In this document: positions 12,010-38,672 of the stretch, piece after piece
Position numbering within the stretch: the stretch's first letter is position 1
How the letters are laid out: each line of letters starts with the position of its first letter
Assembly: GCA_900316505.1 (NCBI GenBank)
Contig: ONDH01000005.1
Coordinates: 48,053-112,052, forward strand
Direction of reading: 5' to 3'
Origin: an uncultured Prevotellaceae bacterium
Lineage (GTDB): Bacteria; Bacteroidota; Bacteroidia; Bacteroidales; Bacteroidaceae
DNA: 64,000 nucleotides
The notes under the pieces: generated by a model
Told to the model about the DNA's origin: nothing
The model's database searches: none
What the model saw: the letters and a program-made list of their open reading frames with translations, nothing else
Made by a program: the position numbers and the translations under genes

Positions 12010-12010
12010 T
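11978..12010 (+). terminator. Rho-independent terminator of the etf-acd operon
   Basis: GGGCTGGCT...AGTCAGCCC stem followed by TTTTT. Confidence 0.7.
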
Positions 12011-12036
12011 ATGCCAAGGAAAAAACAAAGTCCATA

Positions 12037-13170
12037 TCAACTTCTTCTCAACCAAGTCGCCATGAATTTATCATAAAGTTCATAAACTCCTTGATAGTGA
12101 GTCAGCAATTGCTTGGCCAGAAGGATAGAAGCCGCTTTCTGCACACTGCTGGCAGAAGGCAGGTGATGACGTTTCAAGAAAGAAGACCCAGTGATTTGGC
12201 TTGCCTTCCCTTCCTTGCTGATAGCGATGAAGAGGTCACGCTGCTTAGTTGTGAGTTGGAAAAGCATATCCTTATAGGCTTCCTCATTCTGATGGACGAT
12301 TTGACTCTCAGCCTTATCAATGTCAGCAAGTGAGACGGTATAACCTTTCGGAGTAATGGCAAACAATTGATTGAGCATCTTCTGGATGTACCATGTGATA
12401 CCGTCAAAACGTTCGTATATCGTGCCGACCACCCCATCTGCTATCTCTTTCCCATAGTCCAGAAAGTGCTTCTTAGCAAAATTCTCATACGCTTCCAGCG
12501 GCACTGGTTTCAGAAACATCAGTGACACACTCTGGTAGAAAGGACGAGCGGGAGAGGAAAACATCTCACTCATCATACTTTGTTGTGAGCCCGAAAAGAC
12601 AAAGACCGCATTACGACACTGCTGAACGTAGGTACGGAGCATTGCCTCCACATTGCTCTCCTGATATTGAGAGATGGTCTGAAACTCATCTATAGCCACT
12701 ATACATGGCCTCTCCGCTGACTGAAGATAACTGAAAATCTCTTCCAGCGTGAAAACAGGAGATTTGATGTCACCAATGCCAAGATTCCAACTGGCATTGC
12801 CCTGTCCATCAAAAGAAATGCCTGTACGCAACGATGTGACCACTTGCAAAAACTTGTCAATAGCCGCCTGTCCACGAGGTTTCAGCCGCCTCACGATGCC
12901 GTGCCCCAACTGATACACCATGTCCTGCAACGTCTTGGTTGCATAGATGTCAATCAAGAACGTGTAGTAATGCTCACTCAAACGAGGATTGGCAAAACAA
13001 TGGCGAATCAGCCCCGTCTTTCCCATGCGACGAGGAGAAATCAGTGCTGTATGATTGCCATTCACAAGCAGAGACATCAGTTGTTCCGCCTCAGCCTCAC
13101 GGTCACAGAAATATTCTGGCGACTCATATCCGTAGGTGATGAAAGGGTTTTCTATCATGACCACAAGCAT
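12037..13170 (-). CDS. AAA-type ATP-binding protein (archaeal-ATPase/DUF234-like family)
   Basis: Walker A SPRRMGKTGL and Walker B-like CIVAIDEFQ. The size and sequence character match the ATP-binding proteins common in Bacteroidales. A second ATG at 13158 is an alternative start. Confidence 0.75.
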   Translation of the reverse strand: MLVVMIENPFITYGYESPEYFCDREAEAEQLMSLLVNGNHTALISPRRMGKTGLIRHCFANPRLSEHYYTFLIDIYATKTLQDMVYQLGHGIVRRLKPRGQAAIDKFLQVVTSLRTGISFDGQGNASWNLGIGDIKSPVFTLEEIFSYLQSAERPCIVAIDEFQTISQYQESNVEAMLRTYVQQCRNAVFVFSGSQQSMMSEMFSSPARPFYQSVSLMFLKPVPLEAYENFAKKHFLDYGKEIADGVVGTIYERFDGITWYIQKMLNQLFAITPKGYTVSLADIDKAESQIVHQNEEAYKDMLFQLTTKQRDLFIAISKEGKASQITGSSFLKRHHLPSASSVQKAASILLAKQLLTHYQGVYELYDKFMATWLRRS

Positions 13171-13280
13171 TAAATGTTATTTTCGCCACAAAAATACCGC
13201 TTTTCCCACAATCCAACAAACTTTTATCCAAAAAAGATAATCTCAAAAGGATAATTTACAAAAGAAAGTCCACAAATCAT

Positions 13281-13418
13281 GCCGAGAGCGAAGTGGCAAA
13301 GCACAGCAACTACATCAACGCACTCGATGTTGAGCAGTTGCCAAACCACGTGCAGGAATAAGATACACACATATTATAATAAAAGGGCTGGCTCCGATGA
13401 GGAAGTCAGCCCATTTTT
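13281..13418 (+). pseudogene. Detached, diverged copy (copy B) of the acyl-CoA dehydrogenase 3' end plus terminator
   Basis: Encodes AESEVAKHSNYINALDVEQLPNHVQE*, against AESEVAKHSNYINALDVDQLASYVQE* in the intact gene. It is followed by the same hairpin (13385-13412) and a T-run. Confidence 0.8.
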
Positions 13419-13419
13419 T
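13385..13419 (+). terminator. Duplicate terminator hairpin belonging to repeat copy B
   Basis: GGGCTG...CAGCCC stem followed by a TTTTTT run. Confidence 0.6.
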
Positions 13420-13777
13420 GTTCCTTTGAGAATTTTATCCAATAAAGACAATCCTTTCAGGATAATTATTTGGTTGGGGCAAAAAGAAAAAACAAACTTT
13501 TTCACAAACTTGTGATTCACAAAGTTGTGAAAAGGCGTGTTTTTTCTCTGTTACAGACTGAAAACCACCCTGTTCTTGGCAAATAAATCTTTTGTATGTT
13601 CAGTCAAAGGTGAGGTGTGGGAGGTTGTTGACGATGTCCACTGTTTGGGTGCTGACGTTGATGACAGCACGGATAATGTAATAGTTCTGATGGAAGGCAC
13701 ATCCTCCCAGGAAATGCATTCGTTTCATCATCATATACCATTAATTTCTGTTTCCTCCAGAATAGCTAAAAAAACGT

Positions 13778-15406
13778 TTACTGAAATATAGAATATTTCT
13801 CCACGTCATTATTGTTCACAAACCGATAACCAGCGACATCCATAACGGCATAAATGAATTTGTCAGTACAGAATAGTTTGTTCATGGCAGACTTCATCTT
13901 CTCTATTTTGTCAGGATGGAGTTCTTGGAAAACAGGGGAAACATAGATCATGAATGGTATTTTCTTGCCTTGTGCTTGCGATTCCTCCGTTGCTTTTGCA
14001 TGTCCAAAATAGTTGGGGTCGGTATCAAAAAGGTCTAATCCATGATCGGAGAAGTAGAATACAACAGCATCTTGCTCCTTGTATCTGTCCATGATGGAGT
14101 TGACGACGAAATCGTTGTAAAGGGTAGCATTGTCGTAGGCTGCCAAAATTTTTCTTTGATGTTCAGGACACTCCTCATAGTCTTTTCCGTTGAACTGCTC
14201 GTAATCATGCGGATAGCGCTCTTCAAACTTCTCGTGCTGTCCCATAAAATGATAGAAAACGACGTTCTTTCCTCGAGTCTTGGCAGATTCTTTTCCTATC
14301 AGTCCTCCGTCACACCTATCGGATTTCTTTTCATTCTCTAAGAAAAATTTCTCATCGCACAACTGAGCATGTCCACTGGGGAGATTGTCAAACATACCTT
14401 TTTCAGATTGGTTGGAAATCCATGCTGTATAATACCCGGCAATTTTCATCACTTCAATGATATTGGTATGTTCATACCACGGAAACCCATCTTCATGACC
14501 TATTTGATATGTGTTCAACAAATATTTGAAAGCCGCGGTAGTGTGAGAGCAGGGACTCGTTACCTGCTTATAGACGAACAGATTCCCGTCTTCCACTTGC
14601 TTTTTCAAAAGCGGATTCGTATTTCTTTTATATCCATACAAGGAACTATGGTTCAGTGAAAATGATTCACCCAATATAATGATAATCCGTGAAGGGTGAA
14701 TGCTATCACACTCTTCAATTTGAGGGTGAGTTGGGTGATTCTTCAAATCCACAACTTCTTCAAAGTTAAAAGTCCAACGCTCTTTGTCCACAAATTCTTC
14801 TTGGATGATGCCGGAGTTACGCCATATGGCACAGATAGAAATCAACAACATTCCACCTGCAACTATCCATAATTTTCCCCAACTCACCTTTTGTATTTTG
14901 GGAAGTAGAATAGCAATGACGATACTGAGGACAATGATAGAAAAGAACAAGGCAACTTGTTCCCATGAGATGAATGTATCAAAGTATTCTTTCGCCTCAT
15001 CTGGATTAGTGGCTGCCACGATTTGAATGAAATCATTAGAAAGTAGACATCCATATACATGATAGCAATAGAGATTCAATATGGAGAGTAATGTTGTCAG
15101 GATGAATACTATAGGCTTCAACACCCTTGCTATTTTCTGAAATAGATTGAGCACCACCACGATGATATAGGTAATGATGTAATACATCATGGCGAGATAA
15201 ATTGCATAAGTAGGATGTCCCAATTGTGAATAGCAATTGGGGAGAGCAATGAGCACCCACAACAATAAGAAATAGAACCAATCCTGTTGGAAAGGAAATA
15301 GAAGTTTTTCTTTGCAAAGTGCCAATATGGCACATACATTAAGACGTTTCGTGCCAGAACGCCTTGACTTAGGGGAACCATCCTCTCTTTTTAGATTCTC
15401 ATGCAT
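13778..15406 (-). CDS. Phosphoethanolamine-transferase-like membrane sulfatase-superfamily enzyme
   Basis: N-terminal multi-TM region, then alkaline-phosphatase/sulfatase-fold motifs IIILGESFSLNHSSLYGY, FYHFMGQHEKFEERYP and YFSDHG. Confidence 0.75.
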   Translation of the reverse strand: MHENLKREDGSPKSRRSGTKRLNVCAILALCKEKLLFPFQQDWFYFLLLWVLIALPNCYSQLGHPTYAIYLAMMYYIITYIIVVVLNLFQKIARVLKPIVFILTTLLSILNLYCYHVYGCLLSNDFIQIVAATNPDEAKEYFDTFISWEQVALFFSIIVLSIVIAILLPKIQKVSWGKLWIVAGGMLLISICAIWRNSGIIQEEFVDKERWTFNFEEVVDLKNHPTHPQIEECDSIHPSRIIIILGESFSLNHSSLYGYKRNTNPLLKKQVEDGNLFVYKQVTSPCSHTTAAFKYLLNTYQIGHEDGFPWYEHTNIIEVMKIAGYYTAWISNQSEKGMFDNLPSGHAQLCDEKFFLENEKKSDRCDGGLIGKESAKTRGKNVVFYHFMGQHEKFEERYPHDYEQFNGKDYEECPEHQRKILAAYDNATLYNDFVVNSIMDRYKEQDAVVFYFSDHGLDLFDTDPNYFGHAKATEESQAQGKKIPFMIYVSPVFQELHPDKIEKMKSAMNKLFCTDKFIYAVMDVAGYRFVNNNDVEKYSIFQ

Positions 15407-15876
15407 AGTTGGTCGGACGCTTTTGAAATCTAATTATTCATATAATTGGGCATAAGGAAAGCGTACCGCTTTCCGTGTTTCATTCCTGTACTCAGGTAGT
15501 GTCCGACCAAAGATTTAACCTTCTCACTGAAATGAAGAGAAAGGGTACGCCCAAACATGAGCGTATCCCGTTCCTCAGATTCAGTGATTTGTCTGGTCGG
15601 ACTATTTTTGAATACAGAACCTTCAGAATTGAATACGTTGATTCAATATACCCACAATGTCTGCGAACGAACGGCATGGGATGCCGAAAGCTTGCGAAGG
15701 CAAAAGTACGGAAAAAAAAGAAAAGCCAAAAAGGTTGGGAGGAGTTTTTGTAAAAAAGGGGGATGAATGGCGTTGAAAAGGGACTATTTTGATACTGAGG
15801 TAAAGAAAAAAGGAGAAAGAGTGAAAAGGAAGTGACGTTTCCTCTCTTTAGGTTTGCGAATGTCCTGCCGAATGCC

Positions 15877-15884
15877 TATCTTTG
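15877..15884 (+). promoter_or_regulatory. -7 promoter box TATCTTTG upstream of the HU-like gene
   Basis: Exact TAnnTTTG match, immediately 5' of the 14-bp inverted repeat. Confidence 0.4.
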
Positions 15885-15971
15885 TACCTCAAAAGGGGTG
15901 AGAGTCTCACCTATGGTATAGGTCAGAGTCTCACGTGTGGTATAGATGAGAGTCTTACCCCTTTTGAGGTA
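15885..15971 (+). other. 87-nt palindromic element: 14-bp perfect inverted repeat (tacctcaaaagggg / ccccttttgaggta) enclosing 2.5 tandem 24-nt units
   Basis: Arms at 15885-15898 and 15958-15971. The interior reads gagagtctcacctatggtataggt / cagagtctcacgtgtggtatagat / gagagtctta. Confidence 0.6.
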
Positions 15972-15989
15972 CTTAAAGAAAGGAAAGAC

Positions 15990-16391
15990 ATGTTAATCGT
16001 AAGGAAAGCAAAAAAGAAAATCGTGCGGCCTGACGGGCTGCACGAAGCGTGGGTGTATCAGTCACCCGCCCTGCCGCTCATCGCGTTCAAAGACGTGGTG
16101 AAGGAGTGTGCCGAATCGTGTGGTGAGCATCCCAGCAAGACGACGGGTGTGGTCGCCGCGCTGATGGATCGCATTGCGCATTATCTGAAAATCGGGCGTT
16201 CAGTTCGCATTGACGGTATCGGCACGCTCAAGCCAGTCATCAGTTCGGAATCTGCCGCCACGGCGGATGAACTGGACACCCCAGAAATCAGCATCAAGGG
16301 GGTGAAACTGCGATTCTATCCGCACCAACCCTTACAGCAGGCGATTGCGGAGAACGGGTACGAGTACCAGCCGGAACTGGATGACAAATAA
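15990..16391 (+). CDS. HU-like DNA-binding protein (Bacteroidales HU_HIG type)
   Basis: MLIVRKAKKKIVRPDG...VRIDGIGTLKPVI...GVKLRFYP, with HU-fold character shared with the ORFs at 35350 and 35841. The track start at 15882 lies inside the palindromic element. Confidence 0.75.
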   Translation: MLIVRKAKKKIVRPDGLHEAWVYQSPALPLIAFKDVVKECAESCGEHPSKTTGVVAALMDRIAHYLKIGRSVRIDGIGTLKPVISSESAATADELDTPEISIKGVKLRFYPHQPLQQAIAENGYEYQPELDDK

Positions 16392-28742: not shown

Positions 28743-29011
28743 GATGAAAAATACAAGTTAAAATTGTTACTAAAACGAAGCATGCAGGCTCTTGGCACGT
28801 AGGCAGACATACAACATCCGCGTGACATGTTACGCACCATGCCATCGCGCACACCTCAAAAATCGGGTACAAAGTTACTACTTTTTCACCGTGTGGCAAA
28901 AGAAAAAGCCCTAAAGTCGTTTGGACTTCAAGGCTTTTCACTTATTTGGAAGGATTTTTGGCTTTTCACCCTCACAAATCATGGAGGGTTGAGGGGCGTC
29001 TGCATCTTTTC

Positions 29012-29638
29012 CTACCTGATGAAATTCATCGGGTTCCACGCTTCCCTTTCAGGATACTGAGGAGCACCCTCGGCATGGAGTTTCCTCAACAGGAAAGCCA
29101 TATTATCTGCCAAGGTGCGCATGGTTTGCATGCCTTCTGCATCCTGTGCTGCCTCGCCAGGATCACGCCCATAAGCGATGTTCCAATACTGCGATGTCAC
29201 CACAGGCATGTTCATCATCATGAAGGGCATGTTCATCGTCTGGAAAGCTGCCGTAGCACCACCACGACGACACACGGCAATGGCTGCAGCGGGTTTATTC
29301 ACAAACAACGGACCTGCCGAGAAGAACAGACGCTGCACCAACGATAAGGCTGCACCCGTTGGTTGTCCATAATACACAGGTGAACCAATGATGAAGCCAT
29401 CACACGTCGCCATCTTCTCCACAATGCGATTGCACACATCATCATCGAAAGCACAACGTCCCAAACTCTTCGCACGACATTGTCCACAAGCGATGCAACT
29501 GCGCACAGGCTTCACACCCACCTGCACAATCTCAGCATCCACCCCATTCTTTTCCAACTGCTTGGCCACCTCACTCAATGCAGCCATCGTGTTGCCCTCC
29601 TTATGAGGACCCGCATTCACTAAAAGCACTTTACTCAT
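29012..29638 (-). CDS. Flavodoxin-fold NAD(P)H-dependent FMN reductase / iron-sulfur flavoprotein-like protein
   Basis: MSKVLLVNAGPHKEGNT..., the Cys cluster CIACGQC...C, and GFIIGSPVYYG. Confidence 0.75.
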   Translation of the reverse strand: MSKVLLVNAGPHKEGNTMAALSEVAKQLEKNGVDAEIVQVGVKPVRSCIACGQCRAKSLGRCAFDDDVCNRIVEKMATCDGFIIGSPVYYGQPTGAALSLVQRLFFSAGPLFVNKPAAAIAVCRRGGATAAFQTMNMPFMMMNMPVVTSQYWNIAYGRDPGEAAQDAEGMQTMRTLADNMAFLLRKLHAEGAPQYPEREAWNPMNFIR

Positions 29639-29664
29639 AATTCTTTATATTTGTATTTAATTAT

Positions 29665-29790
29665 TCAAGTTTCTGAAGTTATCGCTACGCTCTGGAGTTA
29701 AGCCATTACCTATATCCGGACGTTTTCCACCAGCCTGAGTATCGGCTTAACCACTTAACTACTGACTACTTAACTACTTCAGAAATTTGA
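29665..29790. repeat. Intergenic palindromic element with short-tandem-repeat arms and a GTTATCGCTNCGCTC core
   Basis: Outer inverted repeat tcaagtttctgaagt (29665-29679) / acttcagaaatttga (29776-29790), 14 of 15 matching. The core is at 29678-29704. The right arm reads cttaact actgact acttaac tacttca. Confidence 0.8.
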
Positions 29791-29796
29791 GTCTTT

Positions 29797-30696
29797 TTAT
29801 TTGTCTTCCACAACCTCCGCTCCATCTTCTTGTTCATAATAATAAGAATAGTCGATACCCTTCATAAACAGTTCGCGGTCATCAATACGATCAGTCAGGG
29901 CTTGTTGGAGCAAATGCTTGATGGCATTGGCATCTGCCACACTTCTGCGCATCGCTTCAAGGTATTCCTTCTTGTCTATCTTGCTCCAATCCACACACTT
30001 CTTCAAACGTTTCTTAAATATCAAATCAAGCCAGATGCGTGTAGAGCGTCCATTACCTTCCATGAAGGGGTGAGCCACGTTCATCTCCACATACTTGTTG
30101 ACAATCTCCTCGAAAGTGTTCTCTGGCATCTGCTCAATAGCCCTTAGATTCCTTGACAGCAATTCCGCACGACAGAACAGCGTACCATCCTTCCAAATCG
30201 TCTTTGTCCGTATCCGACCTGCAAAGTCGTAAAGCCCACCAAAGAGGTAGGCATGTATCTGTTGCAGAGCCTTTACCGTCCCAGGTTCCATGCTGTCAAG
30301 TATTCCACTCTCTATCAGAGTATAAGCCTTCTTCTTGCTCTGCCCGTCAATACTATTGTCGCTATAAACAAACCAGTCGAGGAAGGCAGTAGCACGATTG
30401 TTGGGAATCGCTTGTGCAAGCAAGGTAACACTCTTTTGATCAACAACATCTGTCATACGTTTCTTGCCATCAGGAGCAGTTAGTTTCAACTGGTTAGTGG
30501 CACTAACCACTTCATTCTGTTCCTTTTTCAGTTTCGTTTTCAGATATTTCCAGTAGTTGCGGTTTTTCTGATAGTCGTCTTGTTCATTGATGGCTCCAAC
30601 AATATCAAGCACAGAGAACCACCACTTGGAATGTTCCTCATCCCAAATGGCTCGCACCTCATAATCCTTATAAAAACGAATAGACTGCTTACTCAT
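29797..30696 (-). CDS. Bro-N-like domain fused to a Fic (AMPylase-type) domain
   Basis: The N-terminus resembles Bro-N/DinD proteins (YEVRAIWDEEHSKWWFSVLDIVGAI...). The Fic motif is HPFMEGNGRSTR, and the C-terminus contains SYYYEQ. Confidence 0.8.
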   Translation of the reverse strand: MSKQSIRFYKDYEVRAIWDEEHSKWWFSVLDIVGAINEQDDYQKNRNYWKYLKTKLKKEQNEVVSATNQLKLTAPDGKKRMTDVVDQKSVTLLAQAIPNNRATAFLDWFVYSDNSIDGQSKKKAYTLIESGILDSMEPGTVKALQQIHAYLFGGLYDFAGRIRTKTIWKDGTLFCRAELLSRNLRAIEQMPENTFEEIVNKYVEMNVAHPFMEGNGRSTRIWLDLIFKKRLKKCVDWSKIDKKEYLEAMRRSVADANAIKHLLQQALTDRIDDRELFMKGIDYSYYYEQEDGAEVVEDK

Positions 30697-30706
30697 ATTC
30701 TTTTTG

Positions 30707-30714
30707 CAAAGGTA
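30707..30714 (-). promoter_or_regulatory. -7 box TACCTTTG only 11 nt upstream of the Bro-N::Fic ATG, abutting the stop of the upstream gene
   Basis: The plus strand reads caaaggta at 30707-30714. Confidence 0.4.
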
Positions 30715-30715
30715 A

Positions 30716-31468
30716 TCATTTTATTTCAAACATTTGTAACAAATATATTTCAGTCTCATTTGTATATATTGGAGAAACTCGCTTTTTACTGTGCATAACA
30801 ACATGTGTGACATTCTCTCCAGGATTTATCCTTGCGTTATAAAGTTGATTTCCTTTGAGTTGACAACATGAAAAGCAGTACCGTTTCTGCTCGCTAAAAC
30901 ACCTTATACGACTTAGAAAGTTCGCAAATCTTCCCCATCTCGTATGAACAGGATTAAGAATTATATCGACATTATCAAGCACTTTAGAAAAACGTCGCTT
31001 CAAATCCGAGCGATTACGCAAGCGAAACTCCGCACTTCCAGTGCTGCCTTTCAATATATTATTTTCACCACATTGGATTATTAGAAAGCGCTTTCCTGAC
31101 ACTTCAAATTGTCTGTGTTGTTCCAGTTCTTCAATGAGATTCCCTATGTTTTCTTCCGTTGCTTCATTTGTTGTGGAGAACACTTGATTTGTTTCAAGGT
31201 CTATAATACGATTGTTATGCAACAAATATAATTTATTGCCATCTAAACCTTGATGTTCATTTAGTTCAAACAGTGCGCTAATCCGCTTGTGAGCGACACT
31301 TTCACCTATTTTGTACAAATCCTCTGGACTCTTTAATATATGCTCACTAAACATTACGAAATCAGCGCTCGTTTCATTAAGGATGTTCGATATGGCATTA
31401 ATACGGAACTCCCGTTCTTTACCCGACAGGCGAGAATATTCAGGAAATGATACTAACAGTATTTTCAT
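30716..31468 (-). CDS. Hypothetical protein (250 aa) with no confidently recognisable family
   Basis: Clean AT-rich ORF with its own -7 box (TAAGTTTG, 31499-31506). It weakly resembles the nitrilase-superfamily layout (FVMFSEH, LIIQCGEN, VDIILNP) and has a C-terminal Cys cluster CFSEQKRYCFSCC. Confidence 0.6.
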   Translation of the reverse strand: MKILLVSFPEYSRLSGKEREFRINAISNILNETSADFVMFSEHILKSPEDLYKIGESVAHKRISALFELNEHQGLDGNKLYLLHNNRIIDLETNQVFSTTNEATEENIGNLIEELEQHRQFEVSGKRFLIIQCGENNILKGSTGSAEFRLRNRSDLKRRFSKVLDNVDIILNPVHTRWGRFANFLSRIRCFSEQKRYCFSCCQLKGNQLYNARINPGENVTHVVMHSKKRVSPIYTNETEIYLLQMFEIK

Positions 31469-31498
31469 GTTCTTTTTATATTTTTCGAAATCCTATTG

Positions 31499-31506
31499 CA
31501 AACTTA
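31499..31506 (-). promoter_or_regulatory. -7 box TAAGTTTG upstream of the 250-aa orphan gene
   Basis: The plus strand reads caaactta, 31 nt from the ATG. Confidence 0.4.
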
Positions 31507-31648
31507 ATCTTTTAAATTCAAACCTGCTAATATTTTATCATCCTGGTCAAGGTTGAACCACTGCGTCTATCCTTTCAGCCCCATCTGAATACGCGATTCT
31601 ACATCAAAAATTTGGCATAATAATATTTGTCCTTTACCTTCGTTTATG

Positions 31649-32431
31649 TTATTCTTTTTTTATTTTAAGATTCCATCCCTGCTTCTGAATGAAGCGTATG
31701 AGGTTCATAACATTTACAATACTCCATTGGTTGGATACAACAAATTTGACCCCATCACTACTTTGCAGAATAAATTGCCGTTTCACCTGATGCCTGTATG
31801 AGCCTGTAATTATTTTCAGTCTTTTTGCATTCTCAATATTTTCTTCTAACATTTTCCATTGATTCCAGTCGCCCAACAAGTCATCATTGAAAATTTTCTT
31901 TAGAGCAAGCATAGTGGTTTGTGGATGTACGTTGAGATATTCTTTTACAACATCAAAACCTAATCGACTCTTATAAGACACTTTGCCATTTAGGATGATA
32001 CTGATTTTTCCAGCCATGTCCTCTATAGTGAAATCTTTTTCTTTTACATCTGTTGGAGGAGCAACATTTTTTGGAGATGAAACAATCGTTTTTTTTCTAT
32101 GATAGACTTTAATCTCAGCATCATCAAGGAGCATAGCAACATCTTGAAAAATCTCAAGGGCTTCTTCTGGCTTGACATTAAAGAACTCACGGTTATTACG
32201 AATACGACGATTTGTGAAACGTTCTATAGAATGGTGAACATGTTTCTCCGCCTCGTTATATTTTGTGGTTTTCATTGTGGCAAATATCACAAAGGGAAGG
32301 GGGACAGATGTATTGTCAAGTTCCTTGCTTCTCACATCCACAGGACGCGAGCTCTTTCCTATCTTCACCCAATCTTCACGGAAACTGGGATTGGTCAGTA
32401 TATATACGTATCCTGGTTCTTTGTTTGCCAT
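31649..32431 (-). CDS. GIY-YIG-like (T5orf172/MUG113-type) domain protein with an uncharacterised C-terminal domain
   Basis: N-terminus PGYVYILTNPSFREDWVKIGKSSRPVDVRSKEL...REFF. The C-terminal half was not recognised. Confidence 0.7.
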   Translation of the reverse strand: MANKEPGYVYILTNPSFREDWVKIGKSSRPVDVRSKELDNTSVPLPFVIFATMKTTKYNEAEKHVHHSIERFTNRRIRNNREFFNVKPEEALEIFQDVAMLLDDAEIKVYHRKKTIVSSPKNVAPPTDVKEKDFTIEDMAGKISIILNGKVSYKSRLGFDVVKEYLNVHPQTTMLALKKIFNDDLLGDWNQWKMLEENIENAKRLKIITGSYRHQVKRQFILQSSDGVKFVVSNQWSIVNVMNLIRFIQKQGWNLKIKKE

Positions 32432-32442
32432 CTTATTCTTAG

Positions 32443-32525
32443 GTTTTGGATTTCATCGCAAAGGTACGAACAACTCATCACAATACAAAATATAAGTGGA
32501 TGTTTTTTCTTTCCTTATCTCATCC
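32443..32525 (-). repeat. Promoter cassette copy 1 (-7 TACCTTTG at 32459-32466, -33 TTTG at 32486-32489), upstream of the GIY-YIG gene
   Basis: About 65 nt are nearly identical to 33556-33621 and 34684-34749. Confidence 0.8.
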
Positions 32526-32589
32526 AACACTTTCCCGTTATACGAGAAATACTTGGCACCTTGATACGCACCAGAGGTGTTGCGATGCT

Positions 32590-33447
32590 CTATTTCTTTG
32601 GCAGTTTCGATTTATCTTTCAACATATCCTTCTCATCTTTTGCTACACGACGTTCCACCTTCTTGATGTTTTCTGCAGGTGGCAGTTCCTCTGGTTTTAT
32701 GCCACGCTGGCTTAACATGCCACGAACGCTGCGGTTATTCTGTACATGTTCAGCTGTGATATTGGCTTCGCCATAGAGGTCTTTCTGCTCTACGTTATAA
32801 TTGGTCATTTCCGTAGCAAGATTCTTGGCGGCAATCGTCAGTGTAGGCAGATAATCAGCCAAGGCACCGCTCTTGATGCCAAGCCTCTGTTTCATCTGCT
32901 CCGTTGAAAGCCCTCCAAACAGGGCATAATCCCCTTTGGAGCGAATACGTCCAAAGCCTCTATCATCCACTCCACGCTGATAAATATTGCGACTTAACTG
33001 TTTTTCAGAGGCACGCAAGCGTTCACGGGTATTCAAACGAGCCAACTCGTTCAAACGTTCTTCTATGAGTTCCGCCTTACGAGTCTGAACGGCGAAGTAA
33101 CTTTGTGCAAAGGCTACTTCTTCTTTCTTCGGGTCACCGTTCTGTGCTATCAAGTAACAGGCATAACGGGTAAGCATAAAGTCCTGTACTTCACGCTGTG
33201 CGCCTTTAGCTAAAGCTATCATTTTCGTGGTCTCACGAAAATGATCATCCACATTGATTCCCAATGTCTTACATGATTCAATCGCACGACCAATCGCCAC
33301 CACGAAATTCTCCCAACGGGCATAGCCTAACACCTGTTGCAGTTCACGTGCATACCATACTTCGATGGTATTGCCTTCGTCATCATTGATGCTCTTTGCT
33401 ATCAAATCAAAGACTGATTTATATTCCTCTATTTTCGTTATATCCAT
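32590..33447 (-). CDS. dinD: DNA-damage-inducible protein D homologue (Bro-N family)
   Basis: Strong similarity to my recollection of E. coli DinD, for example MLTRYACYLIAQNGDPKKEEVAFAQSYFAVQTRKAEL against [37 protein letters not shown]. Confidence 0.8.
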   Translation of the reverse strand: MDITKIEEYKSVFDLIAKSINDDEGNTIEVWYARELQQVLGYARWENFVVAIGRAIESCKTLGINVDDHFRETTKMIALAKGAQREVQDFMLTRYACYLIAQNGDPKKEEVAFAQSYFAVQTRKAELIEERLNELARLNTRERLRASEKQLSRNIYQRGVDDRGFGRIRSKGDYALFGGLSTEQMKQRLGIKSGALADYLPTLTIAAKNLATEMTNYNVEQKDLYGEANITAEHVQNNRSVRGMLSQRGIKPEELPPAENIKKVERRVAKDEKDMLKDKSKLPKK

Positions 33448-33530
33448 ATTGTTCTTGGGTGGTTCTTTTATTCAGGTCCGTTGGTAGTCATATTGCAGTT
33501 TTACACCAAAATTATCGTCGATGTCCACCT

Positions 33531-33690
33531 TTTTCCTGCTTCATGACTTTTTTGTTTTCAATCGCAAAGGTACGAATAAGTCATCACAATACAAAATATA
33601 AGTGGATGTTTTTTCTTGGCATCTTCTTTCACCTTTTCTCTCCTTATCCTTTCCCTTCAATCACTTCCCAATGCCCCGTCTTTTTGCTTC
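33531..33690 (-). repeat. Promoter cassette copy 2 (-7 at 33565-33572, -33 at 33592-33595), flanked by a Fic 5' remnant and the real Fic 3' end
   Basis: About 150 nt match 34657-34815 with only a handful of mismatches. It contains the remnant start MKQEKGGHRR* (33512-33544). Confidence 0.85.
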
Positions 33691-34672
33691 CCACACGTTT
33701 GATGATGCCCTCTTCTTTCAACTCACCGAGGCGACGTTTTACCGTTGCTTCAGAAGCATCGATGAGGGCAGCATATTCGGCATAGTTGAGAGTTGCATCT
33801 TGCTGAATAGCTTGATATAGGCGCCCTTTTATCGGGTCAGCGAATGATTTTATCGGGTCAGAAGAAGCTTTTATCAGGTCACCCTCTTGTGTCTTCTTGT
33901 ATTCCTCTATCTCCTTACTGATGTTGCGGATGTGCTCTTCCATCATAAATGCGCGGAAGGGGGCAAGCGATTCCTGTTCCCTTGAGTCTATCAGGGCTTG
34001 GATATATTCTGCTTTGTCTTCTTTGATGATTTTCACGGGCACAAGCCCAAATTCATATTGCAATTGATTCATCACGAGGCGAGACATGCGCCCATTGCCA
34101 TCCACCCACGGATGAATGGTCACCAACTGGTAGTGTGCATCGAAACTCAGCTGGTATTTGGCTATCATGTCTTCCGATTCCATCAGTTGATGGCGATTCC
34201 GATTGAGTTGTTCGCAAAACTCTGCTAACTTGCCAGGAACTTTCTGATAGTTCATATAAGAACGCCCACCTGTGCCTGCTGTCACCCCGACCAATCGGAG
34301 GTCGCCTTTCGAAGCATCAAAAGAGCCTTGTGCAGTATTGTACATGGCACCTGTATTCTTCATCACCAGGGCAGACAGGCTTTTCAGCATCTCTACGGAG
34401 AAGTCTGCATGCAAACGAGCCAGCTGCATGGACTGTTCATAGGCTGCTTTCAAGTCGAGATTCATCATCTGTTCTTGCAGGGTGCGTCCCTTGGCTGTGA
34501 TGCCCTCATCAAACAGGAGTTGATTCTCTATCTCCGTCACGGTACTGCCTTCAATGGCTGTTGAATGGGTAATAAGCGAATAGAGATAGAACTTCTGGTA
34601 GTCTATCTGCTCGGCGATGTCCAAAGAATGATGCTCTTCAAGTAGCCTCAACAATTTTTCTTCCTGCTTCAT
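33644..34672 (-). CDS. Fic-family protein with a C-terminal winged-helix domain
   Basis: Fic motif HPWVDGNGRMSR and N-terminal inhibitory-helix motif STAIEG. The C-terminus reads ATVKRRLGELKEEGIIKRVGSKKTGHWEV. Confidence 0.85.
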   Translation of the reverse strand: MKQEEKLLRLLEEHHSLDIAEQIDYQKFYLYSLITHSTAIEGSTVTEIENQLLFDEGITAKGRTLQEQMMNLDLKAAYEQSMQLARLHADFSVEMLKSLSALVMKNTGAMYNTAQGSFDASKGDLRLVGVTAGTGGRSYMNYQKVPGKLAEFCEQLNRNRHQLMESEDMIAKYQLSFDAHYQLVTIHPWVDGNGRMSRLVMNQLQYEFGLVPVKIIKEDKAEYIQALIDSREQESLAPFRAFMMEEHIRNISKEIEEYKKTQEGDLIKASSDPIKSFADPIKGRLYQAIQQDATLNYAEYAALIDASEATVKRRLGELKEEGIIKRVGSKKTGHWEVIEGKG

Positions 34673-34815
34673 GACTTTTTGGTTTTCAATCGCAAAGGTA
34701 CGAATAACTCATCACAATACAAAATATAAGTGGATGTTTTTTCTTGGCATCTTCTTTCCCCTTTTCTCTCCTTATCCTTTCCCTTCAATCATTTCCCAAT
34801 GTCATGTCTTTTTTT
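34657..34815 (-). repeat. Promoter cassette copy 3 (-7 at 34693-34700, -33 at 34720-34723), plus a roughly 50-nt remnant of another Fic-wHTH 3' end
   Basis: The remnant at 34760-34815 reads KKT*HWEMIEGKG*, against KKTGHWEVIEGKG* in the intact gene. Confidence 0.85.
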
Positions 34816-34847
34816 CATTCCCTCATTCTTTCATTTTATAGAGTGTT

Positions 34848-34905
34848 GGCTTAACTCCTGAGCGGAGCGATAGCTCCCTTAACTCCTTTAACTCCAATAA
34901 ACTAA
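34848..34905. repeat. Partial copy, inverted, of the GTTATCGCTNCGCTC-core element, followed by TTAACTCC short repeats
   Basis: ggcttaactcctgagcggagcgatagc (34848-34874) matches the reverse complement of 29678-29704 at 24 of 27 positions. Confidence 0.7.
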
Positions 34906-35021
34906 GGCTCGCAAGGGTTGAACAAGAAAGCCTGTGTTTCGGCAACGCCAAGATATGTCTTTCGTTATCTCAAAAGCACGAGTGGAATCATCTCTGCGAT
35001 GCGTTGCCGTATATCACTAAA

Positions 35022-35153
35022 CAATTTGGCTTGATTACAACTTTCAATTTGGCTTGATTACAACTTTCAATTTGGCTTGAATACAAAACTCAATTTGGCT
35101 TGAATACAAAACTCAATTTGGCTTGAATACAAAAAGGTGTCTTCAAGCCAAAT
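35022..35153 (+). repeat. Iteron-like array: five tandem 23-bp repeats (CAATTTGGCTTGAWTACAA...) ending in a 12-bp inverted copy
   Basis: Units at 35022, 35045, 35068, 35091 and 35114. atttggcttgaa (35116-35127) is mirrored by ttcaagccaaat (35142-35153). Confidence 0.9.
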
Positions 35154-35179
35154 GAAAAAGAGTATTCAAGGTAAATAAA

Positions 35180-35211
35180 TTTGTGTAATCAGAATAAATC
35201 AGTTAACTTTG
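35180..35211 (+). promoter_or_regulatory. Canonical Bacteroidota promoter (-33 TTTG at 35180-35183, 20-nt spacer, -7 TAACTTTG at 35204-35211) for the HU-like gene
   Basis: Both elements and the spacing were read directly. It lies about 140 nt upstream of the ATG at 35350. Confidence 0.55.
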
Positions 35212-35349
35212 CACGGCAAAGCACTTTTGAGACATGCTCGCACAGTTCGATGTGAAGACTCAACAGAAGGAGCCGTGGAGATGTTTGAGGGAAAGTTATT
35301 CTGAATCAACGTTAGATTAAACATAAAAACAAGAAAGGAGAACAAGATT

Positions 35350-35754
35350 ATGGGACTACGCTACAGAGTGAAGAAAGTGAATCTTGACTTGTACAAAAGG
35401 AAAGTGGATGGGTATAAGGTGCAGTTTTTGAACCACACCACCATCACGGAAGAGAGTTTGGTGGAATATATCTCGCGTTCGGCAGGTATCCCCAAGAGCA
35501 TGGTGAAGGCTTGCACGATGGCAATTGCTGATGCCATCGGTTTCTATGTCATCAATGGGCACAAGGTGTCATTCGGCAACTTCGGGAAGTTTCACCTGAA
35601 GGTGGAGAACACGTGTGTAGATACGCCTGAGGAATGTCTGGCTGACACGGTGAAAAGGACAACACTGCATTTCACCCCCAGCAAAAGCATCAAGAATGTG
35701 CTGGAAGGTGTCGAACTGGAAGAGTACAAGTCTTTAAGTGTCAAAAAGGATTGA
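35350..35754 (+). CDS. HU-like DNA-binding protein (HU_HIG type)
   Basis: 134 aa. The sequence ...ESLVEYISRSAGIPKSMVKACTMAIADAIGFYVINGHKVSFGNFGKFHLKV... shows HU-fold character. Confidence 0.75.
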   Translation: MGLRYRVKKVNLDLYKRKVDGYKVQFLNHTTITEESLVEYISRSAGIPKSMVKACTMAIADAIGFYVINGHKVSFGNFGKFHLKVENTCVDTPEECLADTVKRTTLHFTPSKSIKNVLEGVELEEYKSLSVKKD

Positions 35755-35801: not shown

Positions 35802-38672
35802 ATGCAAATATCATCATCAGGACCAAGAGGGGCTATCACGATGTACCCCGAAAAGGTGAAACTCAACTATTTGGAGGGAAAACCAGAGAAGTATCGTCTG
35901 CATTGGGCAAAAGGCCCGGTCATCAAGGACGAGGACATCACTCACTATGCCGCACAAGCTTCGTGTGTGCCAGAGAGCGCCATTGTGCTGGCTCAGGAGG
36001 CACTTTTCGATGCCATCAATTATTTCTGCGCCAATGGACATTCGGTGCAAGTGCCTTATCTTGGCACGTTCAGCGTGAATCTGAACAGCAAGGTGGTGGA
36101 GGATGTTGAAGACGCCAATGCCAACAGCGTGATGCGTCGTCGTCTCCGCTTCTACCCGAAAGGACGACTGAAAGCGGCATGCGACAAGAAGAATATCCGC
36201 ATCGACATTGTCAAGCGGCTCAGCGCCTTGATGGTGACATGCCTGATGAGCGTGGTGCTGTGGGGACAAACCAGTTTCACGGAGGCGACAAAGGTGTTTT
36301 TGATGCACAGCAGTGGCAACCATCTGGAGATGGGCACCGATGGGGGTGGATGGATTGAGTCACCAACGAAGAGCAATGCTCAGCAGATGACGTTCATCCC
36401 TGTCGGACAGGGCTATTACAATATTCAGGCAGGTGAGGAGAAGCGATTCCTCTCGTATGCCAGCCCTTGGAACTCCAAGTTCATCAGCGATGCTTCGGGT
36501 GACGAGGCGAAGTTTGCCATCGAGCCTGCTGCGGGACAGTTCGTGAAACTGCGCTGCAAGGCGAACAACCAATATCTGGGCACTGACAGCAATGACGGGC
36601 ACGTGAAGGTTTACACCAACAAGAGCGGTTCGGAACTTAAGCACCAATGGTATTTTGGCAGCAAGGCGAACGAGGCTGCACCTGCCAGCGAATTCCACTA
36701 TATGGTCAATCCACTGGTGGTGCGTCAGCATTTTGACGGATGGGGCGTTTCGCTCTGCTGGTGGGCAGGACAGTGTGGCAAGTGGTCGGACAAGAAGATT
36801 GATGAAATCATCACATGGCTGGTCAGTCCTACTGGGCTTAACTACAGCCATTTCCGCTATAACATAGGTGGTGGAGATGACCCCAAAAACACCCATTGCA
36901 ACCTTCACCACATGGGTAACGGAAAGGGCTTGAGGGCTGAAATGGAGGGCTTCAAAGATTCGAGCGATGACACCTATCATTGGGAGCGCGATGCTGCTCA
37001 GCGGAAGATTATGCTGAAGATTAAGGAGAAGCGTCCCGATGCCGTGTTTGAGGCATTCAGCAATTCATGCCCTTACTACATGACCTACAGTGGATGCGTG
37101 AGCGGCAGCGTGGATGGAGGTTCCGACAACTTGCGTCCTGAATACTATGAAGAGTTTGCCCACTATCTGGTGGATGTATGCAAGCACTATAAGGATGAGT
37201 ATGGCATCGAATTCAAAACGCTCGAACCTTTCAACGAATCGGTGACGGGCTTCTGGTATGCCAACGGAGCACAGGAGGGTTGCCACTTCGACTATGAGTC
37301 GCAAATCAAGTTTGTGCGTGTGTTGGCACCCATTCTCAAGGCTTCGGGCCTCAACACGGTCATCTCTGCTGCCGACGAAACAAATGTGGGGCTGGCTGTG
37401 GAAGGATTCAAACAATTCATCAAAGCCAATGCCGACCAATATGTGGGACAATGGAACACGCACACCTATTCGGGCAACAATGTGGACAGGGCACGTTTCA
37501 GCCAACTGGCACACGAGACAGGCAAGGACTTGTGGATGAGCGAAACGGGTTCTGGCGGCAATGGCATCGGAGGCAACTTGAGCATGACACAAAGGCTCTT
37601 CGACGATATGCGCTACATTCAACCCGACGCATGGATTGACTGGCAATATATGGAGGAGGCAAATGACCAGTGGTGTACCATCCGTGGCAGTTTTGCCAAC
37701 CAGACTTACAACAAAGTGAAGAACTACTATGTGAGACAGCAGTGCTCGCGCTTCATCAAGCATGGATATGACATCATCGCATCGCCGTGTCCACAGTCAC
37801 TTGCGGCAATCAATGCAACACGCGACACACTGGTGGTTGTTGCCCTCAACGAAGGGTCTTCAGCCACTCACTACATTGACCTTTCACTCTTCCAGGAATT
37901 GCCTCTGCGCTCAAACATCCGCGCTTACCGGACATCAGAAAACGAGAATTTGGCCAACGCTTTGAGCAGTGTCAAACTGGATGGCACAACGCTGACCTTG
38001 AGCATGCCTGCCCAAAGCATCACCACATTGGTGATTCCTGTCCGTGCAGCGAATGTGGAACCTATGGCATTGCCGCAAGATGGGGATGAATACCTCATCA
38101 TTCCACGCCAGGAAACCACCAGAGCCTTATCAGCATCTGTCAGCAAGGTGACGCTGGAAGATATTGATTATGGAGAGGCACAGCGTTGGACAGTGAAAGA
38201 TTTGGGAAACGGCACCTACAGTTTCCAAAACGCATTAGGGCTCAAGTTGACATCGCACCGAAGCAGCAACAGTTCATCGCTCACGGCGCAGAAGAACCAA
38301 GCGAATGAGCAGGCATTCCGCATCGTGCCAATTGACTTTGCCAACTATAAGATTATGGTTGCCAACTACCCCACCTATGCCTTCGACCTTTCAAACACCT
38401 CTTCCGATGCTGGTAATACCATCGGCACGTGGACGTATGCAGATGGCAACACCACACCCACACATCGGCAATGGATGCTCTTCCCTCTCACAGCGTCACA
38501 AGTGCTTGACGGCATTGAGGAAGTGAAAACAGAGAGCCTCATGAGCACATCTGTAGATGATTCGGGCATCTATGACCTCTCCGGACGACGTGTGGCAGAT
38601 GCCTGCAATGGAACTTCTGGTTTGGCTAAGGGCATCTACATCATGAACGGAAAGAAAATAGCGGTGCAGTAA
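35802..38672 (+). CDS. Continuous ORF: second HU-like domain, then a signal-peptide-like helix, a beta-trefoil domain, a GH30-family glycoside hydrolase, a ricin/CBM13-like domain and a T9SS C-terminal sorting domain
   Basis: HU-like part from the ATG at 35841 (MYPEKVKLNY...HSVQVPYLGTFSVNL). KRLSALMVTCLMSVVLWGQ lies at about 36213-36270. GH30-like catalytic regions are LEPFNES and LWMSETG, and QxW-type repeats are present. The T9SS CTD is GIYDLSGRRV...GIYIMNGKKIAVQ. No stop codon separates the HU-like part from the hydrolase part. Confidence 0.7.
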   Translation: MQISSSGPRGAITMYPEKVKLNYLEGKPEKYRLHWAKGPVIKDEDITHYAAQASCVPESAIVLAQEALFDAINYFCANGHSVQVPYLGTFSVNLNSKVVEDVEDANANSVMRRRLRFYPKGRLKAACDKKNIRIDIVKRLSALMVTCLMSVVLWGQTSFTEATKVFLMHSSGNHLEMGTDGGGWIESPTKSNAQQMTFIPVGQGYYNIQAGEEKRFLSYASPWNSKFISDASGDEAKFAIEPAAGQFVKLRCKANNQYLGTDSNDGHVKVYTNKSGSELKHQWYFGSKANEAAPASEFHYMVNPLVVRQHFDGWGVSLCWWAGQCGKWSDKKIDEIITWLVSPTGLNYSHFRYNIGGGDDPKNTHCNLHHMGNGKGLRAEMEGFKDSSDDTYHWERDAAQRKIMLKIKEKRPDAVFEAFSNSCPYYMTYSGCVSGSVDGGSDNLRPEYYEEFAHYLVDVCKHYKDEYGIEFKTLEPFNESVTGFWYANGAQEGCHFDYESQIKFVRVLAPILKASGLNTVISAADETNVGLAVEGFKQFIKANADQYVGQWNTHTYSGNNVDRARFSQLAHETGKDLWMSETGSGGNGIGGNLSMTQRLFDDMRYIQPDAWIDWQYMEEANDQWCTIRGSFANQTYNKVKNYYVRQQCSRFIKHGYDIIASPCPQSLAAINATRDTLVVVALNEGSSATHYIDLSLFQELPLRSNIRAYRTSENENLANALSSVKLDGTTLTLSMPAQSITTLVIPVRAANVEPMALPQDGDEYLIIPRQETTRALSASVSKVTLEDIDYGEAQRWTVKDLGNGTYSFQNALGLKLTSHRSSNSSSLTAQKNQANEQAFRIVPIDFANYKIMVANYPTYAFDLSNTSSDAGNTIGTWTYADGNTTPTHRQWMLFPLTASQVLDGIEEVKTESLMSTSVDDSGIYDLSGRRVADACNGTSGLAKGIYIMNGKKIAVQ

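Follow-up and report, generated by a model that had tools for sequence, protein, structure and literature searches.

Defense-gene hotspots without a recognizable mobile element have been described in Pseudomonas aeruginosa and Escherichia coli. The core defense hotspots (cDHS) of P. aeruginosa often carry no obvious mobile element, and homologous recombination through their conserved flanks has been proposed (Johnson et al. 2023, PMC10250203). At hotspot #37 of E. coli, a mobile element could not be detected in 68% of cases (Hochhauser et al. 2023, PMC10121019). The route by which genes enter and leave such mobile-element-free hotspots has yet to be settled (PMC10250203). In the rumen, SoFic and PDC-S04, both of which return below, rank among the abundant systems of metagenome-assembled genomes, most of them in Prevotella (PMC13356809). 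Here, we analyze an island of five minus-strand genes (g1 to g5) at positions 29797 to 34672 of a 64,000-nucleotide (nt) stretch of contig ONDH01000005.1 (assembly GCA_900316505.1; uncultured Prevotellaceae bacterium); we refer to this whole stretch as the window. An earlier reading of the same DNA, which we call the first-pass annotation, had picked out the island as a candidate defense hotspot.

We interpret the locus as a strain-variable hotspot for defense and other accessory genes, set between core genes of an uncultured rumen member of the Prevotellaceae or Bacteroidaceae, in which independently transcribed single-gene modules are turned over by homologous recombination. We give this interpretation a probability of about 0.78. 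Judging from the sequence comparisons below, the five genes appear to be separate modules standing side by side, each independent of the others, and we infer that the locus has anti-phage activity. Apart from g2, which is unannotated, the island genes themselves are already catalogued types.

Gene content varies on near-identical flanks

The five open reading frames (ORFs) were found where the first-pass annotation had placed them, between a flavodoxin-like gene and an HU-like gene. On the right, they are flanked by the core gene FMN_red (29012-29638, minus strand) for a flavodoxin-like NADPH-dependent FMN reductase (Pfam PF03358, 95.7 bits), followed by thrA. The left neighbor of the hotspot is a plus-strand gene for an HU-HIG family DNA-binding protein (35350-35754; Pfam PF18291, 66.5 bits); beyond it lie an ORF of 956 amino acids (aa) with HU-HIG, glycoside-hydrolase and RicinB domains and then the type IX secretion (T9SS) genes gldN, gldM and gldL.

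To compare this interval between strains, we gathered loci from rumen metagenome contigs and species-representative genomes by means of the exact FMN_red protein, the exact DinD protein (the product of g4) and the pattern of a promoter module described below. The FMN_red protein is identical in all strain loci L001 to L008, and contigs that share it are ~97% identical in their flanks but differ in their interiors. FMN_red and thrA on one side, and GldL/M/N and HU-HIG on the other, frame the locus in L001 to L006, L089 and L112. On these conserved flanks, contigs with 100% identical FMN_red or DinD proteins display at least 11 gene-content configurations, the opposite of conserved synteny of one gene set. 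Several configurations were recovered from more than one sample, which argues against assembly chimeras.

The diversity is best appreciated by listing what stands between g5 and FMN_red, or at the equivalent position. The window and L001 carry DinD, T5orf172 (g3), g2 and Bro-N-Fic (g1). In L003 (12 of 22 contigs read), DinD and Bro-N-Fic enclose a 711-aa protein and AbiH, and in L113 they enclose proteins of 604, 275 and 142 aa. DinD is combined with a 535-aa Cas12f/TnpB-like protein in L005 and L115, with a 1302-aa type IIG restriction-modification (R-M) protein in L111, L112 and L114, and with proteins of 162 and 401 aa in L116. Altogether, an identical DinD precedes at least six different cargo sets on other contigs. 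Other strains depart further: L002 has a KilA-N gene (PDC-S22, 443 bits) and a 141-aa protein; L004 and L006 a HigB-like protein and a helix-turn-helix (HTH) protein; L089 a DEDDh-FtsK-gamma exonuclease, a 113-aa protein and a divergent Bro-N-Fic; L094 relics plus type IIG R-M; and L092 and L095 DinD in the absence of g5. At the far end of the range, two species-representative genomes have next to nothing at the site. In L009, whose FMN_red is 100% identical, the site is empty and the glycoside-hydrolase gene is missing too, while L010 holds one promoter module and a 75-aa stump of a TnpB-like gene only. The proposal of a candidate defense hotspot is thus supported by content that varies among near-identical relatives, down to the empty site of L009.

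The cargo includes recognized defense classes, specifically type IIG R-M, AbiH, a SoFic-like protein and the PADLOC types PDC-S02 (as a fragment in other strains), S04, S13, S22 and S57, along with non-defense genes such as the HigB/HTH pair, the TnpB-like gene and unannotated proteins. The 535-aa slot protein (L005 7743-9350, L115 1328-2935) is weakly similar to the PADLOC Cas12f model over residues 235-449 (E = 2.4e-10) and has no Pfam match. It starts at the same module ATG-GCA that is used by T5orf172 in the window, and the TnpB-like stump of L010 (9781-10008) adjoins FMN_red.

Base composition sets the island apart as well. The island genes have a mean GC content of 0.419 and a mean GC content at third codon positions (GC3) of 0.427, compared to 0.487 and 0.556 in 43 other long ORFs of the window (Mann-Whitney p ~0.002), which bears out the earlier impression, gained by eye, that the island is richer in AT than its neighbors. 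GC is uneven inside the island, being 0.364 in g2 and 0.369 in g3 and rising to 0.471, close to native, in g5. The foreign composition is strongest in g2 and g3, the two genes of a hypervariable slot.

A hypervariable slot and recurrent breakpoints

Three frame cassettes, g5, g4 and g1, recur in many strains. The most widespread frame gene is g5, present in L001 to L006, L089 and L112 and absent from L009, L010, L092 and L095. The g1 gene is also found in the L003 and L113 configurations, and its 5′ end survives in L002, L004, L006 and L095. Between the frame cassettes lies the slot (30727-32504, no strand assigned; GC ~0.37), which in the window comprises g2, g3 and promoter copy 3 and at whose edges homology to other strains breaks. 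In L001 coordinates, these slot-edge breaks are at 7135 or 7213 and at 8908-8913, equivalent to window positions 32504 or 32426 and 30726-30731. Elsewhere, the slot is filled by the 711-aa protein with AbiH, the 604-, 275- and 142-aa proteins, the TnpB/Cas12f-like protein, the type IIG R-M protein, or the 162- and 401-aa proteins.

Pairwise BLAST of the strain loci revealed that homology breakpoints recur at five window positions: 33599-33633, where module 2 has its 5′ edge; 32504, which marks both the 5′ edge of module 3 and the point where the tail of the DinD cassette ends; 32426, directly after the ATG-GCA of that module; 30726-30731, at a distance of 30 nt upstream from g1; and 29662, just upstream of FMN_red. 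The first three of these are promoter-module edges. Single cassettes also turn up in other surroundings. That is, the DinD cassette (32504-33633) has a different left neighborhood in L111, T5orf172 occurs with a module at another locus, before a type I R-M operon (L093), and the 5′ end of T5orf172 persists as a relic in L094. Where g5 stands between two modules in the window, L092 and L095 lack g5 and have a single module, a state which could be the expected product of direct-repeat recombination or could be ancestral.

From the positions of these breaks, we infer that general homologous recombination, and no site-specific recombinase, changes the content. Exchange would take place within the conserved flanks, the frame genes and the 68- to 156-nt promoter module, and a new gene landing just downstream of a module would arrive with a ready promoter.

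Few marks of an integrative element

A decayed prophage, conjugative transposon or other integrative element would offer another account of the island, with Bro-N, KilA-N, T5orf172 and Fic as left-over phage "moron" genes. All four annotated families have PHROG matches, DinD is found in Akkermansia phage Chantilly and Streptococcus phage Javan290, and a TnpB/Cas12f-like gene sits in the slot of L005 and L115. Nevertheless, we consider such an origin very improbable. In agreement with the first-pass annotation, which had seen no integrase or transposase, the Pfam gene table of the identical contig assigns no called gene to an integrase or transposase family; the strain versions examined contain no integrase, structural, conjugation or tRNA gene, and there is no tRNA gene within the 64-kb window. 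Single island genes are common on phages and plasmids, but the island as a whole is covered to at most 15% by any phage or plasmid record. In addition, the promoter module is absent from viral contigs, and change goes cassette by cassette and not as one block.

The 38-nt inverted repeat that brackets g5 to g1 would also suit an integrative element. The first-pass annotation had noticed inverted copies of a repeat core at the island edges, and this repeat is real and non-random: its arms at 29668-29705 and 34847-34884 are 82% complementary, with a local alignment score of 46 versus a maximum of 35 in 1000 dinucleotide shuffles. As a general boundary, it did not hold up, since the right arm occurs only in strains carrying g1. 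This arm is part of a 126-nt palindromic element downstream of g1 (29665-29790, no strand assigned; inverted repeats I4 and I16), which also holds CTTAACTA repeats, detected by Tandem Repeats Finder as an 8-nt array at 29746-29779. The element has a predicted RNA fold of -38.9 kcal/mol (z = -3.5) and is present only in strains with g1. The left arm (34847-34884, no strand assigned) contains the hairpin GGAGC-GATA-GCTCC and, in all strains possessing the region, is kept ahead of the first promoter module. The inverted repeat was accordingly rejected as an island boundary or attachment (att) site: its right arm comes only with g1, and the empty L009 site has no copy. An Rfam scan of 28.5-36.5 kb at E values up to 1 returned two chance snoRNA-like matches only, so no known RNA accounts for the repeats.

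A promoter module repeated before three genes

The first-pass annotation had proposed that each gene has its own TAnnTTTG box, and there is indeed one within 130 nt upstream of each of the five genes, compared to a background rate of 0.30 per kb per strand. A scan for sigma-70 promoters and terminators gave no enrichment over shuffles; the sigma-70 null is expected in Bacteroidetes, and the TTTG/TAnnTTTG consensus was used instead.

What had not been listed before is that g5, g4 and g3 are each preceded by a copy, in direct orientation, of one promoter/leader module, with 68 nt shared by all three and 156 nt shared by two at 95% identity. A 27-nt core is 100% identical in the three window copies, with 0 such cases expected by chance. 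The module has a Bacteroidetes-type architecture, with TTTG at -33, 19 nt of spacing and TACCTTTG at -7, and ends 16-24 nt before the start codon. Copy 1 (class F; 34658-34813, minus strand; direct repeats D2 and D3) drives g5 from a TTTG-19 nt-TACCTTTG arrangement whose -7 box lies 28 nt before the ATG. Copy 2 (class F; 33530-33685, minus strand; direct repeat D2) overlaps the 3′ end of g5 and drives g4. Copy 3 (32444-32511, minus strand; D3 family) is of class T, with a leader ending in CCTAAGAATAAG-ATG-GCA, and drives g3, again through TTTG-19 nt-TACCTTTG and with the -7 box 35 nt before the ATG. Per strain, we counted one to three modules, which together stand before at least six unrelated ORFs. 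The copy-3 type of leader recurs before the TnpB-like gene of L005, before a remnant in L010 and, at another locus, before the T5orf172 gene of L093.

Relics within the module speak to its origin. The upstream end of copy 1 includes a 42-nt relic matching the 3′ end of a gene for a Fic protein with a winged helix-turn-helix (wHTH), and copy 2 holds a relic of the first four g5 codons (ATG AAG CAG GAA), the ATG of which has become ATA in several strains. Together, these two relics point to the junction between tandem Fic-wHTH genes as the source of the module. As a side observation, modules open with a ~50-nt polypurine tract (GAAGGGAAAGGATAAGGAGAGAAAAGGGGAAAGAAGATGCCAAGAAAAAAC), at 34760-34813 and 33632-33685 on the minus strand. 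Polypurine tracts can adopt unusual DNA structures, and they might favor recombination.

The identity of the 27-nt core before g5, g4 and g3, the gap of only 19 nt between g2 and g1, and the DNA-binding wHTH of g5 could be taken as signs of one cooperative five-gene system in which, for example, the Fic-wHTH protein regulates DinD, the nuclease, the hydrolase and the second Fic protein via a shared promoter. Every gene occurs independently of the others, however, which excludes obligate cooperation: g4 is found without g5 (L092, L095, L111), g1 without g2 or g3 (L003, L113), a g3-type gene at another site (L093) and g2 homologues alone (L097, L098). Moreover, the short palindrome in the module core (CATCCAC...GTGATG), a candidate operator for the g5 wHTH that we rejected, is lost in the copies of L093, L094, L010 and L089. 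Cooperation of all five genes is, in our estimate, scarcely credible.

Two Fic proteins with probable inhibitory motifs in cis

Profile searches with Pfam and NCBIfam bore out the domains previously called for g1, g3, g4 and g5. The first-pass annotation could not match the set to any named defense system; this has to be revised, as PADLOC models match four of the five genes (g1, g3, g4 and g5). The matches of g1, g3 and g4, like that of the KilA-N protein of L002, extend over the full length.

The g1 protein (29797-30696, minus strand; 299 aa) consists of a Bro-N-like domain (residues 1-110) fused to a class III Fic AMP-transferase of the NmFic type (residues 114-289). Pfam scores are 44.8 bits for Fic and 23.7 bits for Bro-N, the latter below its cut-off of 25.6; residues 1-109 also match a PADLOC PDC-S13 model with 99.5 bits. 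Over its full length, g1 matches PDC-S04 (529 bits), which means that the Bro-N::Fic fusion is already a catalogued subtype. It exceeds the NCBIfam NmFic equivalog cut-off (262.1 versus 230 bits), and the segment from residue 114 to 289 can be aligned over its whole length to residues 9-184 of NmFic (212 bits). NmFic, the class III enzyme of Neisseria meningitidis (PDB 2G03, 3S6A, 5CGL), shares with g1 the HPFxEGNGRSTR active site and the residues SYYYE of its inhibitory helix. The Fic motif of g1, HPFMEGNGRSTR, fits HxFx(D/E)GNGRxxR, and its C-terminal SYYYEQ keeps the Ser and the inhibitory Glu of the NmFic sequence SYYYEG, with G replaced by Q. Thus, g1 differs from the single-domain NmFic (~190 aa) by an extra N-terminal Bro-N-like domain of ~110 aa and by the Gln after the inhibitory Glu. 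GyrB and ParE are targets of NmFic-type enzymes.

The second Fic protein, g5 (33644-34672, minus strand; 342 aa), has an N-terminal inhibitory motif (STAIEG), the active site HPWVDGNGRMSR and a C-terminal wHTH. Pfam recognizes Fic with 53.7 bits and HTH_24 with 34.7 bits (residues 279-325). The PADLOC SoFic model matches weakly (85.6 bits), phmmer against SoFic chains gives E ~8e-4, and the closest solved relative is FICD. In its sequence, g5 is a distant relative of SoFic with SoFic-like architecture and not an orthologue. Like g5, SoFic is a class II Fic protein with an [S/T]xxxE[G/N] motif, a Fic core and a C-terminal winged helix (PMC12249575; bioRxiv 10.64898/2026.07.09.737422), and it is a toxic AMPylase giving abortive infection (PMC12249575). 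EF-Tu has been reported as a SoFic target.

Alignments show the catalytic motifs of both Fic proteins to be intact, as is the inhibitory motif of g5 and, apart from the G-to-Q change, probably that of g1. Different from class I FicT/FicA toxin-antitoxin pairs, in which the antitoxin is a separate small gene, g1 and g5 appear to carry the inhibitory motif in cis and have no partner ORF. The first-pass annotation had likewise seen no small antitoxin-like partner, and near g5 the only short ORFs lie inside the promoter module; self-inhibition of both Fic proteins would explain the absence of antitoxin genes. The two are not recent duplicates, their similarity being limited to the active-site region, nor are g1 and g4 paralogous Bro-N proteins, between which BLASTP detects no similarity.

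Should the locus work as we propose, g1 and g5 would be kept inactive by their own inhibitory glutamate and, once released upon infection, would bring the cell to arrest by AMPylation of an essential host target, as expected from their family. Sensing or DNA binding would probably fall to the Bro-N-like domain in g1 and to the wHTH in g5.

T5orf172 and DinD proteins linked to restriction-modification

The g3 protein (31649-32431, minus strand; 260 aa) has an N-terminal nuclease domain of the GIY-YIG-type T5orf172/MUG113 family and a C-terminal domain. It scores 51.3 bits against Pfam T5orf172 (gathering score 20) and 218.6 bits against PADLOC PDC-S57. Invariant among 36 homologues are G7-Y8-V9-Y10, K23-I24-G25, R34, E82 and N85, which include the GIY-YIG catalytic Tyr, Arg, Glu and Asn. 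In a fold search, the top matches were without exception to the GIY-YIG nuclease Slx1, albeit weak ones (E = 0.08). The C-terminal domain is modeled with a predicted local distance difference test (pLDDT) score of 85-95 but has no significant fold match, and a PDB sequence search returned no matches for g3 or g4. A homologue search for g3 gave 6048 matches, many with a query coverage of 41-63% and some carrying PF14088; the first 110 aa show 80-90% identity among thousands of proteins whose C-terminal halves differ. The family thus appears to follow a pattern of a constant nuclease head and a swappable tail. By analogy to its family, g3 would cut invading DNA.

As for g4 (32590-33447, minus strand; 285 aa), a canonical member of the DNA-damage-inducible protein D (DinD) family, Pfam Bro-N scores 35.9 bits, the NCBIfam DinD equivalog NF008573 347.8 bits (cut-off 242; residues 5-282 of 285) and PADLOC PDC-S13 378 bits. 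Residues 14-268 also match a PADLOC HsdS-fusion model (155 bits), and in other strains an identical DinD directly precedes type IIG R-M genes, two observations that suggest an accessory role of g4 for R-M systems. In line with its family, g4 may be a DNA-binding or RecA-interfering accessory, of a kind that often heads R-M operons.

Independently of the window, T5orf172/GIY-YIG and DinD genes repeatedly come first in R-M-type operons. Illustrative examples are L093 (reoriented; 8535-13895), where T5orf172 is followed by a type I methyltransferase, HsdS and an SpbK-like protein; L103, the Prevotella sp. E2-28 plasmid pE2-28 (1-5892), with HTH, GIY-YIG, WYL, AAA ATPase and methyltransferase genes; and L111 and L114, where DinD is followed by type IIG R-M. 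Both kinds of gene may be R-M accessories or regulators and not stand-alone defenses.

A nitrilase-like fold for g2

The first-pass annotation had called g2 (30716-31468, minus strand; 250 aa) an orphan. While it is true that g2 is unannotated, with no match in Pfam, NCBIfam, PADLOC or PHROGs, its relatives form a family of ~250-aa proteins that has 368 representatives at 50% clustering. Its AlphaFold2 model (pLDDT 95.9) finds, in a Foldseek search of the PDB, the formamidase AmiF, Nit2, amidases and nitrilase-family entries (E = 6e-9; template modeling scores of 0.59-0.62), and its top viral match is a CN hydrolase. On the strength of this model, g2 is predicted to adopt the alpha-beta-beta-alpha sandwich fold of the nitrilase (CN-hydrolase) superfamily. 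Pfam gave no match at E values up to 10, and a PDB sequence profile search gave no nitrilase, so the link to nitrilases comes from the fold.

Invariant residues of g2 include C133, E135, K140 and E68, with C133 at a strand-to-helix turn. E42, the presumed counterpart of the Glu expected after strand 2 in a Glu-Lys-Cys triad, is kept in only 31 of 45 sequences. Homologues of g2 occur alone at variable sites (L097, L098), and a pairing of g2 with g1 or g3 was dismissed, as each occurs without the other. Among ten longer g2 relatives that were scanned, seven (including P0247, P0254, P0283, P0293, P0298 and P0340) combine the nitrilase-fold domain with a weak DUF7255 (PF23913) region, mostly below threshold.

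Defense, addiction or neutral sink

Instead of defense, the island could house selfish addiction or stress modules that are hard to lose, such as self-inhibited Fic toxins, a DinD-type SOS gene and HigBA-like pairs, which would make it a neutral sink for acquired DNA with no role against phages. The alternative cargo is dominated by classes with proven defense roles (type IIG R-M, AbiH, SoFic-like), close homologues of g3 and g4 head R-M operons in L093, L111, L114 and pE2-28, and class II and III Fic proteins have their inhibitor in cis and so form no classical addiction pair; on these grounds we find a selfish or neutral island unlikely, even though it would sit well with the HigB-like/HTH pair in the slot of L004 and L006, with the presence of NmFic-type Fic genes on hundreds of Enterococcus plasmids and with the inconsistent defense neighborhood of g2. 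It would also agree with the PDC-S04 deletion in one native host, which produced no defense phenotype (bioRxiv 10.1101/2024.12.20.629700).

That deletion is one of several points that weigh against the defense hotspot we favor. PDC-S04, PDC-S13 and PDC-S57 are single-gene PADLOC candidates defined by association, not validated systems. For g5, the NCBIfam SoFic equivalog yields 28.3 bits at a cut-off of 550. SoFic of E. coli H397 has a small downstream antitoxin, AS1, of 47 aa (PMC12249575); an AS1-like partner of g5 was not found, the only candidates being short ORFs (24-39 aa) that begin with TTG or GTG and lie without exception within the repeated promoter module. In only one of six other contexts examined does g2 lie beside a defense system (type I R-M). 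Since the slot also takes a HigB/HTH pair and a TnpB-like gene, it is a general sink for accessory genes and not strictly defensive. Regarding the route of exchange, breakpoints at 32504 also occur in strains without module 3, so many exchanges used the frame genes and not the module. The module itself is nearly confined to this hotspot, which accounts for seven of the eight metagenome stretches containing it, and scanning for its exact pattern gave 0 matches in species-representative genomes and 0 in viral contigs, which shows that it is no widespread cassette signal. It may be a local relic of a tandem Fic-wHTH duplication and not a selected device.

A bolder proposal would be that the module is a recombinase-free landing pad, a nearly invariant patch of ~70 nt beside the polypurine tract and a few bases ahead of the start codon, into which general homologous recombination would splice one incoming gene after another, each expressed at once and possibly co-regulated by the Fic-wHTH protein, and that the g2 family and the 711-, 604-, 368- and 141-aa slot proteins are new defense genes. 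Given the near confinement of the module to one hotspot, we treat the landing pad as a minority reading and the proposal as a whole as doubtful.

HU-HIG genes and other accessory patches

Next to the hotspot, the HU-HIG gene is itself variable: L002, L009 and L092 have a different allele, with ~74% nucleotide identity to that of the window. Between g5 and the divergent HU-HIG gene lies a tandem array of 4.9 copies of a 23-nt unit (CAATTTGGCTTGAATACAAAACT; 35022-35134, plus strand), again absent from the first-pass annotation; partial inverted copies of it continue to 35191. Tandem arrays of 22-24 nt commonly stand before HU-HIG genes, and their sequence changes with the HU-HIG allele; at the place of the window array, the alleles of L002 and L009 are accompanied by 5-6.6 copies of GTATTCACGCTAAAGCCAATTGA. 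Besides that at 35022-35134, arrays of this type are located at 15897-15959 of the window, 5707-5858 of L002, 9608-9728 of L009 and 7092-7193 of L097. An HU-HIG-linked array could be an allele-specific operator, but HU-HIG proteins have been considered unlikely to be sequence-specific (Burroughs et al. 2017). A 23-nt array as such proved to be no signature of HU-HIG genes, as one of three copies at 5148-5216 precedes a gene for an outer-membrane beta-barrel protein.

In the 956-aa ORF (35802-38672), an HU-HIG domain is in frame with the glycoside hydrolase and RicinB; the hydrolase part, labeled GH30 in the first-pass annotation, has only a weak GH59 match in Pfam. In L010, the hydrolase is an 835-aa protein starting downstream of the HU-HIG part, whereas L009 lacks the hydrolase and has the second HU-HIG as a gene of its own (144 aa). 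Two readings fit the window ORF, a fusion by read-through or a hydrolase translated from an internal start. The hydrolase gene counts as accessory, too.

A second low-GC patch of the window (12037-16391, GC ~0.40) comprises genes for an ATPase_2 protein (12037-13170) and an EptA-like phosphoethanolamine transferase/sulfatase (13778-15406, GC 0.396), adjoined by a third HU-HIG gene (15990-16391). With HU-HIG genes at 15990-16391 and 35350-35754, such genes thus stand beside both AT-rich accessory patches of the window. Finally, the interval between FMN_red and thrA (~28946-29008) is a second insertion/deletion site: L003, L005, L007 and L008 have an extra ~5.3 kb at this point, with genes for a protein of 166 aa and for a Peptidase_C10/leucine-rich repeat protein of 1543 aa, and the window has none of it.

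Relation to known hotspots and integrons

The many contents found on a near-identical background, combined with few recurring breakpoints, make the recombination route of this hotspot experimentally approachable. The landing pad, if true, would be a concrete account of how mobile-element-free defense hotspots are built. Candidates for new defense functions are the nitrilase-fold family of g2 and the 711-, 604-, 368- and 141-aa slot proteins, which share the slot with R-M and Abi genes and come from a phage-rich ecosystem poorly covered by cultured models.

In some respects, the locus resembles an integron array, with head-to-tail single-gene cassettes of unrelated functions, a recurring junction and new genes placed for expression. 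Integrons, however, depend on IntI and attC, whereas here the identical contig has no called gene of a recombinase family and the cassette ends have no attC-like imperfect palindromes. The junction is instead a direct-orientation promoter before a gene, and, unlike in integrons, the exchange resembles general homologous recombination.

Closer parallels are provided by cDHS1, cDHS2 and hotspot #37, which share with this locus fixed core flanks, variable defense-rich content, a lower GC content and, often, the absence of a mobile element. The present hotspot is smaller, ranging from 0 to ~7 kb compared to a median of 26 kb for cDHS1 (PMC10250203), and a tRNA gene was not found in the window, in contrast to cDHS2, which borders on the ssrA tmRNA gene, and to cDHS1, which is similar in this regard (PMC10250203). 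What sets it apart, in addition to its residence in uncultured rumen Bacteroidales, is a pair of features that we have not seen described for cDHS1, cDHS2 or hotspot #37: frame genes inside the variable region and a repeated promoter with readable breakpoints.

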